Notes under the pieces: model-generated
What the model saw: the letters and a program-made list of their open reading frames with translations, nothing else
Databases searched by the model: none
Told to the model about the DNA's origin: nothing
Assembly: GCA_038213805.1 (NCBI GenBank)
Contig: JBBQSO010000027.1
Location: 1 to 60,711 of the forward strand
DNA: 60,711 nucleotides
Direction: 5' to 3'
Source of the DNA: Planctomycetota bacterium
GTDB taxonomy: Bacteria; Planctomycetota; UBA11346
In this document: positions 4,794 through 9,625 of the stretch, one piece after another
Position numbering within the stretch: the stretch's first letter is position 1
How the letters are laid out: every line of letters starts with the position of its first letter
Program-made: the position numbers and the translations under genes

Positions 4794-5075
4794 GGCGGGC
4801 TTCTCGTGGGGATGCCGGGAGGGGGAGGCGGAGGCCAGGGTCGCAGAGGGCGGCGGCCGGGCGACGGAACCAATCATAGGGTAGAATACTTTGCTGAAGC
4901 GCAGGCGTTTTCAGCGAAAATTCGTGGAATTGCACCGGTTAGCAGTGGGAGTTGGACTTTCAGTCCCCGCTCGCGCCTGGTACCCCCAGGTTCAGCCGCG
5001 CACCCCAAATCGCTGCCCATCCCAGGATCAGCGTACGACGCTCGGCGTCGTCGCGTTTCGGACATGTGGCATCCG

Positions 5076-6755
5076 TCACGATCTGCCAGTTCGCAGCGCC
5101 GCCGGCACGAATTCCGGATCGCTCGCCTCCGCGATCGCCAGCCCGATCTGGAATTCCATGATCGCCGCCGGAATCGGGCTGCGGTAGCCGTCGAGGCAGG
5201 CGCGCAGGGCCGCGGCAGGGCCGAGGTTCGCGGTGCGCGCCAGGCGGTAGGCCTTGACCGCGATAGCCTCGGCGGCGCCGGGGGTGAGCAGCAGCGGCAC
5301 CAGCGGCTCGAGCGAGGCGCCCTCGGCGTCCGTAAGCGTCAGGCCGCGCCGTTTCGCCAGCGCGCGCAGCAGGCGCAGGCCCTCGGCGGTGGTGGTGGTC
5401 GGAAAGATCGGGATGCGCACGTCGATGCGTCCGGGCCGCTTGAGGTCGACCTCGATCAGATCCGGCCGGCTGCTCGCCAGGATCCACACGATGCGCCCGC
5501 GGTTCTCGCCGCGCGACATCTCCTCGGCGATCATCGCGTAGATGCGGCCGTTGATGCCGCCGGCGTCGTTGCCGCCCTGGTCGCGCTTGCCCAGCGCCTG
5601 GTCGGCTTCGTCGATGAACACCAGGCAGCGGCGGAGGGCGTGGATGAGGCGGAAGATCTTCTCGAGGTTGCCTTCGGTCGAGCCCACCCACTTGTCGCGG
5701 AAGTTCTTCAGCCGCACCACCGGCACGCGCGCCTCGCCGGCCAAGCACTCGACCAGGAAAGTCTTGCCGGTGCCGACCGGTCCGCACAGCAGGTAGCCCA
5801 TCGGCATGGCGGCGAGATCGCCCGCCGCCCACAGCGCGAGGTCCTGGCGCAGCCAACGCTTGATGGGTTCGCCAGCCTCGTAGTCGTCGAGCGAGCGCCG
5901 CGACTCGATGAACTCGATGAGCCCGCCACAGTCGCGCTCGACCAGCGCCTTCTTGATGCCGAGCAGGTCGCCGTCGCCCAGCGGCTGGTCGAGGTGCTCG
6001 CGCGTGCGCAGCAGGGACTCGATCGCGCTCAGACTGGTGCCGGTCAGGAGCGCAGCCGGCTTCGCCAGGTCTGCGGCCAGGGCGCGCAGCGCGCGCGGCA
6101 CGCGCGGCTGGAGCAGGGTCAGCGCCTGCGCCAGTTCGCCGGCGTCGGGCAGCGGCACGCGCACCTGCGCGGCGCGCGGGTTGGCTGCGACCAGCGGGTG
6201 CAGGTCGGCGAGGTTGTCGGCGATCAGAAACGACGCGACGGCCTGATCCGCGAGCAGGCCGTCGCTGGCCCAATCGCGGATCAGGCTGGCCATCGCATTG
6301 GGCTCGACCGCGCCATACGAGGCGGCCGGCACGATCAGGTCGGCGGAGCGCACCACCACGCCGACCTGGACGCGGCCCTGGCCGAGGCGCGCCAGGTTGG
6401 CGACGTAGCGCAGGTAGTGGGTGATCGCCTCGATGGCTTCGCGCGGCTGGCGCGGCAGCTGCGGCTGTTCCTTGAAGCGCGGCCATTTGGTGAAGGTCTC
6501 GCCGCCCTTCTCGACGCGCAGGCCGTTGCCCAGGTCGTAGCTGAGGATGACGTCGAAGCGCGGCAGCAGCACTTTGGCCAGGAAGTCGCCGAGGCTGCCC
6601 AGACCGCCGCCGGCGATCGGCAACACCAGGCGGTCGTGGACGTTGCCGCTGAGGATGAACTGGCTGGCCGCGCCGCTCTCGTAGCCGGTGATGAGGTCGT
6701 TGGCCCAGGCGGGCAGGGCCGGGCTGGCGGCCGCGGCCGGGAGCGGGTCGGTCAT
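5076..6755 (-). CDS. Classical-clade AAA+ ATPase with a degenerate N-terminal AAA-like domain
   Basis: Walker A GPVGTGKT, pore loop KWVG, Walker B LVFIDEAD, second region of homology SSRPDLIEVDLKRPGRID. Start at ATG 6755 (MTDPLP). Confidence 0.9.
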   Translation of the reverse strand: MTDPLPAAAASPALPAWANDLITGYESGAASQFILSGNVHDRLVLPIAGGGLGSLGDFLAKVLLPRFDVILSYDLGNGLRVEKGGETFTKWPRFKEQPQLPRQPREAIEAITHYLRYVANLARLGQGRVQVGVVVRSADLIVPAASYGAVEPNAMASLIRDWASDGLLADQAVASFLIADNLADLHPLVAANPRAAQVRVPLPDAGELAQALTLLQPRVPRALRALAADLAKPAALLTGTSLSAIESLLRTREHLDQPLGDGDLLGIKKALVERDCGGLIEFIESRRSLDDYEAGEPIKRWLRQDLALWAAGDLAAMPMGYLLCGPVGTGKTFLVECLAGEARVPVVRLKNFRDKWVGSTEGNLEKIFRLIHALRRCLVFIDEADQALGKRDQGGNDAGGINGRIYAMIAEEMSRGENRGRIVWILASSRPDLIEVDLKRPGRIDVRIPIFPTTTTAEGLRLLRALAKRRGLTLTDAEGASLEPLVPLLLTPGAAEAIAVKAYRLARTANLGPAAALRACLDGYRSPIPAAIMEFQIGLAIAEASDPEFVPAALRTGRS

Positions 6756-6765
6756 GCGCGGGCGC

Positions 6766-7098
6766 TCATTTGCCGCTCGCCCCGGCGTCCTTGAGCTTCT
6801 TCGCCAGCGCGGTGGCTGCAGTCCAGCCGGCCTTGGTCTCTTCGGTCTCGATCTGCACGTCGTTCCAGCCGGCCTTGTAGGCGGCGGCCTCCCAGGTCTC
6901 GAACTTCGCGACCAGCGCGTCGATCTCGGCATAGGCCGCGTTGAGCTCGCCGACGTCCTTGCCAGCGAGCGCCTTGGTGGCGTGCACGCGCACCGCGGCC
7001 ACTTCCTTGGCGAGCGGTTCGAGGGCGGCTTTCGGCGCAGCGTCTTCGGCCCAGGCCGCGACGCTGCAACCCAGGATCAGGGCGAGGATGCGGTGCAT
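6766..7098 (-). CDS. Small exported alpha-helical hypothetical protein (110 aa)
   Basis: Signal peptide MHRILALILGCSVAAWA; GGAG Shine-Dalgarno-like sequence upstream; fills the gap between pspA and the AAA gene. Confidence 0.75.
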   Translation of the reverse strand: MHRILALILGCSVAAWAEDAAPKAALEPLAKEVAAVRVHATKALAGKDVGELNAAYAEIDALVAKFETWEAAAYKAGWNDVQIETEETKAGWTAATALAKKLKDAGASGK

Positions 7099-7126
7099 GC
7101 GGTGACTCCTCCGGGGGTGGAGACGC

Positions 7127-7882
7127 TCAGCTCGCGGCGCCCTGGCCCGGGCCCATGCTCTTGGCGGCCGGGGTTGCGGCGGGCACCACCGGGCTGCCAG
7201 GCTCGAGTGCGATGCCCTCTTTGGCGGCGAAGTCAGCGAGCGCCATGTCGGCGAGCGCGCGCTGTTCGGCCTCTTTCACGTTGACCTGCGACATGTCGAG
7301 CGAGTCCTTGGCGACGCGCGCGCGGCCGGCGGCCTTGTCGCGTTCCTCGGCGACCATGGTCGAGAGGCGGTCGAGGGTGTCGCCGGAGCCGCCGATGCTG
7401 GTGATCATGCCCGATGCCATCTCGGTCATCTCGGCCATGGCCTTCTTCATCTTCATGTCCTCGATGCCGCTTTTCAGCGCGTCGAGCTTGGCTTTGGCCG
7501 CGGCGATCGCGACGTCGCGCGACTTCAGCAGGTTCTTGTAGGTCTCGTCGGCCTGGGTGAGCTGGGTGCGGTTCTCCTCCAGCTCGCGGGACACGGTCTG
7601 CAGGCGCAGGGCGTACTGGCCGGCGGCGTCGCGGTTGCCGGCGCGCAGATGGGCAGAGGTCTTGGCGCGCAGGTCGCGGTCCTCGGCCTCGAGCTTCTTG
7701 ACCTGGCTCATCAGGCGCTCGCACAGCCCGGCGTGCGAGGCCAGGCCCTGGTTGTACTGGCCGATCTGCTTGCGCAGGTTCTCCTTCTCGACATCGAGCA
7801 GGGCCTCGGGGTTGCGGCGCTCGACGCCCGAGACGAACAGGCCAAGGAAGCCTTTGAACAAGTTGGCGATGCGTCTGAACAT
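7127..7882 (-). CDS. pspA: PspA/IM30 (Vipp1/ESCRT-III superfamily) protein
   Basis: Amphipathic N-terminal helix MFRRIANLFKGFLG, then NPEALL, coiled coil with AGNRDAA, DTLDRLSTMVAEE, and a flexible C-terminal tail. Confidence 0.9.
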   Translation of the reverse strand: MFRRIANLFKGFLGLFVSGVERRNPEALLDVEKENLRKQIGQYNQGLASHAGLCERLMSQVKKLEAEDRDLRAKTSAHLRAGNRDAAGQYALRLQTVSRELEENRTQLTQADETYKNLLKSRDVAIAAAKAKLDALKSGIEDMKMKKAMAEMTEMASGMITSIGGSGDTLDRLSTMVAEERDKAAGRARVAKDSLDMSQVNVKEAEQRALADMALADFAAKEGIALEPGSPVVPAATPAAKSMGPGQGAAS

Positions 7883-7967
7883 GGGGGGCCCTGCGCTGGT
7901 CGGGGGTGGCTATTGGAAGCCAAACATGGGCGAGAGGGGGCCGGGGGCAAGGGAGAGGCCGGAGCTC

Positions 7968-8188
7968 GGCTGATGCCAAGGGCTGGCAGCTGACGGCCGA
8001 CGGCGCGGGCGCTCGCAGGAAGGCCCAGCCGGTTACGACGGGTCGGAGGGGTGCGGCGCACACGTCTGGGACGGCTTAGCACCATCGGGCACCAAAAGCC
8101 GCCAGCCGCCAGCCATCAGCCATCAGCCATCAGCCATCAGCCATCAGCCATCAGCCATCAGCCATCAGCCATCAGCCATCAGCCAGCC
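7968..8188. repeat. Inverted heptamer-array element; right arm contains (AGCCATC)x10
   Basis: Ten exact AGCCATC units at 8111-8180; degenerate complementary GGCTGAT/GCTGACG units at 7968-8004. Confidence 0.85.
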
Positions 8189-8194
8189 GTCCCC

Positions 8195-9625
<1,431 letters not shown>

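Follow-up and report, generated by a model that had tools for sequence, protein, structure and literature searches.

A 60,711-nt stretch of Planctomycetota DNA (contig JBBQSO010000027.1 of assembly GCA_038213805.1; hereafter the window) carries at positions 5076 to 7882 of its minus strand the membrane-repair gene pspA, a gene of 110 amino acids (aa) and a gene for a tandem AAA+ ATPase. The first-pass annotation of this DNA had read the three as a candidate bacterial counterpart of the ESCRT-III/Vps4 membrane-remodelling pair. Its layout agrees with the coordinates, as the genes are co-oriented and separated by only 28 nt (pspA to the 110-aa gene, 7099-7126) and 10 nt (the 110-aa gene to the ATPase gene, 6756-6765). 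Judging from its sequence, the locus adds a genuine new example to a system that is known from computation, further genes of which lie on another contig of the same genome. The features discussed below are as follows.

7127..7882, minus strand: pspA, 251 aa, a PspA/IM30 protein of the ESCRT-III superfamily (PF04012, E 5e-11)
7148..7213, minus strand: tail of PspA, a variable Ala/Pro-rich linker (aa 224-240) and then KSMGP (aa 241-245)
6766..7098, minus strand: orphan gene of 110 aa, with a signal-peptide-like start and no family match above cut-off
5076..6755, minus strand: tandem AAA+ ATPase gene, 559 aa from the ATG at 6755 (PF00004, E 5.5e-24)
5931..6716, minus strand: degenerate AAA module of the ATPase, about aa 14-275, placed by hhalign and conserved columns
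5091..5924, minus strand: active AAA module of the ATPase, about aa 278-555, placed by sequence and motif patterns
5760-5783, minus strand: Walker A of the ATPase, GPVGTGKT (aa 325-332)
5682-5693, minus strand: pore loop of the ATPase, KWVG (aa 355-358)
5601-5621 (listed span), minus strand: Walker B of the ATPase, FIDEAD (aa 380-385)
5421-5444, minus strand: second region of homology of the ATPase, LKRPGRID (aa 438-445)
G000:C111:1961-5825 (locus L081, contig C111): genes for a binding protein with a vWA domain, a binding protein and a two-helix protein, which are operon genes 1, 2 and 4

The evidence that ties the ATPase to PspA comes from gene neighbourhoods and from co-inheritance. We surveyed the loci of the best 80 of 291 ATPase relatives from a scan of genome contigs, and in 61 of them pspA precedes the ATPase gene in the same orientation. 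Where at least 3.2 kb of upstream sequence was present, the proportion was 57 of 64 loci; the gene was missing from 12 of the 16 loci with a shorter upstream flank. Adjacency to pspA is thus the rule for these ATPases and far from rare, and in all seven unlinked cases a 59-76% identical PspA was encoded elsewhere in the genome (in one case with an internal stop). Among 37 genomes of this family, 19 had both genes and 14 had neither, while three had only PspA and one only the ATPase; in the PspA-only genomes the genes were near contig ends, and in the ATPase-only genome the contig starts just upstream. The control was a second dead-plus-active tandem AAA ATPase of the same architecture and patchy in the family (G000:C11:35997-37487, L112), which, with its relatives, we take to be Ycf46-like. 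It showed no association with PspA (9 genomes with both, 13 with PspA only, 5 with the control only, 10 with neither). The two kinds of ATPase are alike in pairing a dead N-terminal with an active C-terminal AAA module, whereas the Ycf46-like one is not co-distributed with PspA. Sequence identities of the ATPase and PspA also co-vary (rho 0.58 and 0.85 within clades). These data support the conclusion that the ATPase is genomically dedicated to this type of PspA, together with which it is inherited in many bacterial phyla.

The PspA partner is the sole PF04012 match in the genome (43 bits against a cut-off of 33.9, residues 2-216), and proteins of its type are 53-75% identical across phyla. 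At the N terminus, residues 1-18 form an amphipathic helix (hydrophobic moment 1.62) with conserved F2, L8, F12 and F16. At the other end, a conserved last helix is followed by a variable linker rich in Ala, Pro and Thr and then by the motif K-x-[ML]-G, often with a P behind it; the flexible C-terminal tail through which the ATPase had been proposed to act is present and carries a conserved motif. Within the last 28 residues, K-x-[ML]-G was found in 52 of 60 clade-1 PspAs, the one in the window included, and in 28 of 29 clade-2 PspAs, compared to means of 0.8 and 1.0, respectively, in shuffled tails (5 of 34 clade-2 proteins, for which no start was recognised, were left out of the scoring). 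Requiring the linker as well hardly changed these counts (51/60 and 27/29), and the motif is kept between two PspA clades that are only 25% identical. The pattern misses a tail variant in one PspA whose genome encodes an ATPase of the sister clade. From its sequence and position, K-x-[ML]-G behind the flexible tail is a candidate site for docking or engagement by the ATPase.

The ATPase has intact motifs of the unfoldase type. Its predicted structure (predicted local distance difference test score 84.7) comprises two AAA modules, aligns over the whole length with D1-D2 of p97, Drg1 and Rix7 in Foldseek, and matches type II AAA unfoldases over residues 11-547. The active module has the Walker A and B motifs, aromatic pore loop 1 and second region of homology with arginine fingers of classical-clade AAA+ unfoldases; the KWVG and LKRPGRID that the first-pass annotation had picked out are both in the sequence. 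Among homologues, the patterns for Walker A, the pore loop and Walker B recurred in 92 of 92 sequences each, and LKRPGRID in 91 of 92. The N-terminal domain, which had been called inactive, indeed appears so, given that a P-loop pattern occurred in just one of 92 N-terminal halves and that the half matched Cdc48 D1 (90% in hhalign) and the N-terminal half of the Ycf46-like protein (81%). This degenerate module is without Walker A, Walker B and arginine fingers, and its conserved residues are W17, F33, G37, D41, W162 and P203. Pfam gave no match to an MIT domain in the ATPase, whose N-terminal half is instead an alpha/beta AAA module; the predicted structure has no Cdc48-type N domain, and neither Pfam profiles nor the predicted structure contained a DNA-binding or other output domain. 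Five members of the ATPase family (P0154, P0166, P0176, P0177 and P0192) are 820-860 aa long and, by eye, seem to have two copies of the dead AAA module ahead of the active one.

A special kinship to Vps4, as the first-pass annotation had implied, found no support. Against named profiles, the ATPase scored best with Cdc48 (67 bits, where the cut-off is 803), followed by FtsH (64 bits), with CdvC (29 bits) among the weakest matches, and all scores were far under cut-off. Superposed on Vps4, spastin and fidgetin, the active module gives a Z of about 21 and a root-mean-square deviation of about 3 over some 260 residues. The Z scores for fidgetin-like 1 (21.8), Vps4 (21.4), spastin (21.2), Rix7 (20.4, over 457 residues) and p97 D2 (19.9) are so nearly tied that structure picks no subfamily. 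We also built a tree from 34 rows of active modules, which is small, has long branches and holds no archaeal or eukaryotic Vps4; a motif filter had removed two Ycf46-like rows and one Cdc48 D2. In this tree the ATPase family and the Ycf46-like proteins fell on one side of a 98/97 branch, a grouping that may reflect attraction since both are long branches. In approximately unbiased (AU) tests on the same rows, nesting the family with Cdc48 D2 was rejected at p 0.016, and nesting it with D1 and D2 together was rejected marginally (p 0.047). The unconstrained tree sets the family apart from bacterial Vps4-like proteins, but a clade that unites the two was not rejected (p 0.18).

Membership of the Vps4 and Cdc48 families was rejected. 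Vps4 and CdvC have an MIT domain and a single AAA module, whereas the ATPase described here has no MIT, two modules and a CdvC score of 29 bits; what the two systems share is an ESCRT-III-superfamily polymer protein and a classical AAA enzyme that has arginine fingers and an aromatic residue in its pore loop. Likewise, the tandem arrangement is that of Cdc48/p97/VAT, Drg1, Rix7 and Pex1, and Cdc48 is the best named profile, but Cdc48/p97 has an N domain and two active modules, and here the N domain is lacking, D1 has no Walker A, and the profile score and AU tests speak against the family. By architecture, the ATPase is therefore not a Vps4, but it may work like one: we consider it somewhat probable that it is a functional analogue of Vps4 that remodels PspA polymers, with no claim of homology to Vps4. 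Contig C35 (L111:877-3393) separately holds a TPR-AAA gene followed by a TPR-membrane gene, with a CdvC score of 166 bits, and this pair fits the context published by Ravi et al. (PMC11237479) for bacterial Vps4-like ATPases of archaeal derivation.

The wider operon adds membrane and solute-binding proteins to the pair. Of the 80 loci, 42 (39 strong and 3 weak matches) have a conserved gene, mostly between pspA and the ATPase gene, whose product is a membrane protein of two helices with a long coiled coil, and 13 of the 80 loci had the intact order of binding protein with vWA, binding protein, pspA, two-helix gene and ATPase. In this genome, the usual partners, which the first-pass annotation had missed, are on contig C111, and the five-gene operon is thus divided over two loci; the same split was seen in four genus-mates. 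For 24 distant genomes without the two-helix gene in the locus, a search of the rest of the genome recovered it in 14. The cultured, non-pathogenic Arenimonas composti DSM 18010 (L072) has pspA, the ATPase gene and the two-helix gene in a row. Further operon variants occur in Abditibacteriota/Armatimonadota (L002, L003, L024, L029 and L044), where a divergent membrane coiled-coil gene and another uncharacterised conserved gene lie upstream of pspA.

The two-helix protein was modelled with confidence as all-helical, with a long hairpin. Its fold search returned designed bundles as the best hits (Z 8.4), with no specific match and no ESCRT-III protein listed, and hhalign gave 0.3% against PspA. 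Pfam showed nothing consistent over 30 family members, and PF25587 was not among the matches listed for them (25 of 55 families). The nearest named Atlas cluster of the C111 protein is that of Rv2743c (PspM), with a score of 0.89 and 40% of members, which we treat as a lead only. A pairing of the MoxR-vWA type was considered for the vWA-bearing partner and rejected, as the vWA domain stands behind a membrane anchor and a solute-binding domain; from that order, the domain likely lies outside the cytoplasm.

We think it fairly probable that the ATPase is a dedicated remodeller that would grip the PspA tail and pull subunits from membrane-bound polymers. From what is known of the two families, PspA would polymerise on the inner membrane via its amphipathic N-terminal helix, and the ATPase would be a double-ring hexamer whose aromatic pore loop threads polypeptide. 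The dead ring may replace MIT as the docking platform and K-x-[ML]-G may be the handle, such that the ATPase would engage the PspA tail and thread subunits out of the polymer. The two-helix protein could anchor or nucleate PspA in the way of mycobacterial PspM, and an envelope signal could come from the binding proteins in the periplasm. In its fullest form, this would amount to an independent bacterial ESCRT-III/Vps4-like cycle, in which the dead ring of a non-Vps4 tandem motor stands in for MIT, catches a MIM-like K-x-[ML]-G on the PspA tail and so lets the motor disassemble membrane-bound filaments, a PspM-like anchor and the periplasmic binding proteins control the place and time of filament formation, and the parts act in trans after the operon split; we offer this complete cycle tentatively, and rate it at a little less than an even chance.

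Several points weigh against remodelling of PspA by the ATPase. The genomes compared are related and incomplete, so that the counts overstate independence and the Fisher values are overstated too. The two-helix gene co-occurs with the ATPase about as tightly as PspA does in the family (18 genomes with both, 2 with each alone, 15 with neither), and thus co-inheritance does not name the substrate; indeed, identities of the two-helix protein track those of the ATPase better (rho 0.87 and 0.93). Among seven PspAs whose genomes lack this ATPase, three also fit a loose version of the tail pattern, although there the match forms the final turn of helix 5 and a linker is missing. No pspA is annotated within 5 kb of the distant ATPase-family members that two Paenibacillaceae plasmids carry. 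Synechocystis PspA itself hydrolyses ATP (PMC11746142), and a motor is thus not strictly required. Finally, our literature search, which covered few subscription papers, found no binding, ATPase, disassembly or other experimental study of the ATPase family.

In the main competing explanation, the substrate is the two-helix membrane protein, or its complex with the binding proteins, which the ATPase extracts or resets in the manner of a Cdc48 segregase, while PspA would serve as a scaffold or adaptor and recruit the motor to the membrane. Besides the identity correlations, the position of the two-helix gene directly before the ATPase gene in many loci and the overall match of the ATPase to D1-D2 of p97, Drg1 and Rix7 would suit such a role. 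When the operon was divided in this genus, however, the ATPase stayed with pspA and the two-helix gene went with the binding proteins, and an unlinked cognate PspA was found in every case (7/7) while the two-helix gene was recovered in 14 of 24. We therefore regard a two-helix substrate as unlikely, though as the alternative to be taken most seriously.

It is also conceivable that PspA regulates the ATPase rather than serving as its substrate, with envelope stress drawing PspA to the membrane and freeing the motor for other targets. E. coli PspA sets a precedent by inhibiting the AAA+ protein PspF (PMC7619361), and the unusual conservation of this PspA type across phyla would fit a large binding surface. 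In this genome, moreover, no protein passes as PspF: each of 13 sigma-54 activators fell below the PspF cut-off, and the PspB and PspC families had no match, in an assembly that is 90% complete. The absence of pspB, pspC and pspF that the first-pass annotation noted for the window thus extends to this assembly, and sets this system apart from the enterobacterial Psp regulon, which has all three. The ATPase lacks an output domain, however, and a conserved motif at the end of a flexible tail looks more like a recruitment signal than an inhibitory hairpin; regulation by PspA accordingly seems improbable to us. A system devoted mainly to solute sensing or uptake, built of binding proteins with or without an ABC permease and ATPase, which PspA and the AAA ATPase only assemble or maintain, is very improbable. 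A sister clade does have binding protein with OmpA, ABC ATPase and permease genes in 39, 38 and 35 of 80 loci, respectively, but the 13 intact loci and C111 have neither permease nor ABC ATPase, and many loci are made up of just the genes for PspA, the two-helix protein and the ATPase.

The 110-aa gene, which the first-pass annotation had taken for an exported periplasmic partner, did not fare well. Just three of 61 related genomes have it and none of the 80 distant loci does, and in six genus-mates pspA stands directly before the ATPase gene with no room for it. Profile searches returned no family above cut-off, Atlas scores were at most 0.78, one homologue cluster emerged among 40 candidates scored, and a weak match in G034 (E 5e-5) was dismissed as lying inside a longer unrelated open reading frame. 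In its favour, the gene occupies the same position in all three carrier genomes, has tight gaps on both sides in the window and is a real gene, under purifying selection (pN 0.05-0.10 against pS 0.31-0.37), and its start, read by eye, resembles a signal peptide (hydropathy peak at residues 3-18). The two further carrier genomes, however, have a palindromic spacer of 220-330 nt between it and the ATPase gene. As PspA and the ATPase are cytoplasmic, an exported protein could meet only the products of C111. We conclude that the gene is likely a recent and unrelated insertion, a passenger, and that a true lineage-specific periplasmic partner, which would be compatible with remodelling of PspA by the ATPase, is a poor bet. 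The spacers in these two closest relatives (L107:1833-2060 and L108:1506-1837) are REP-like, and there are none in the window.

Elsewhere around the locus, a perfect 7-nt tandem repeat (CAGCCAT x 10.9) spans 8110-8185 of the window, between a sulfatase-like gene and pspA, and similar repeats are intergenic in some related loci (e.g., L004). Regulatory signals were uninformative, with 0 sites in a sigma-70 promoter scan of 4800-8300 and 4 weak terminator-like matches there against 1.8 expected.

The system is patchy in Planctomycetota, where 20 of the 37 genomes from this family and 2 of 24 other families have it, and it is common in Acidobacteriota, Verrucomicrobiota and other phyla. Nothing therefore ties it to the membrane invaginations of planctomycetes, for which the first-pass annotation had thought it important, and a planctomycete-specific role was rejected. 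The sister ATPase clade, chosen from a quick tree, is 33% identical; its 80 loci were mostly short metagenome pieces, with 2.5 kb on both sides in only 24, and its own PspA (25% identical) was found in 36 loci and the two-helix gene in 44. Directly after the ATPase gene, 38 of these 80 loci encode a conserved protein of 100 aa (e.g., L221:7764-8066), a possible cofactor for which Pfam gave no match. The distant plasmid members mentioned above (L253 and L254, on megaplasmids of Brevibacillus and Paenibacillus) lie beside DUF262 genes, which suggests other uses of this motor.

The nearest published system is that of Ravi et al. (2024, mSystems; PMC11237479), who describe PspA with an 'inactive classical AAA + classical AAA' protein (examples AEY64321.1 and OGG56892.1) in a neighbourhood that adds 'SIG+TM+Snf7' and PBPB(+OmpA)/ABC genes, and who propose an ESCRT/Vps4-like role for the ATPase. 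The statement of the first-pass annotation that PspA-AAA neighbourhoods are known from comparative genomics was thus correct. Matched by architecture and context, our locus agrees with theirs in the dead-plus-active ATPase, the pspA linkage and the kinds of membrane and solute-binding partners, here in trans at C111. It differs in that the operon lies on two loci, has an inserted orphan and lacks ABC genes, and in the binding protein with vWA, a term that appears 0 times in the supplement of that paper. Our fold search and hhalign did not confirm the Snf7 label that they give to the membrane protein. A second parallel is mycobacterial PspA-PspM (Rv2744c-Rv2743c), in which PspA also has an integral membrane partner and PspM holds a form of PspA at the M. 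smegmatis membrane, unlike here in that the operon clgR-pspA-pspM is described there without an AAA gene (bioRxiv 10.64898/2026.09.09.750162).

Makarova et al. (PMC11188069) place systems of vps4 with ESCRT-III in archaea and eukaryotes alone, and according to a 2025 review (PMC7619361) bacteria appear to lack a Vps4-like regulator of ESCRT-III assembly, which raises the question of how PspA polymers are recycled. The pairing of PspA with this ATPase and the analogy to Vps4 are already in print (PMC11237479). What this analysis adds is the split of the operon, the reading of the small gene as a passenger and the specific tail motif, K-x-[ML]-G, which does not occur in the passages of Ravi et al. 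on which our comparison draws. The PspA/ATPase family thereby provides a two-protein system with a named candidate handle, the tail motif, and, if the ATPase does remodel PspA polymers, it would represent the convergent evolution of an ESCRT disassembly motor.

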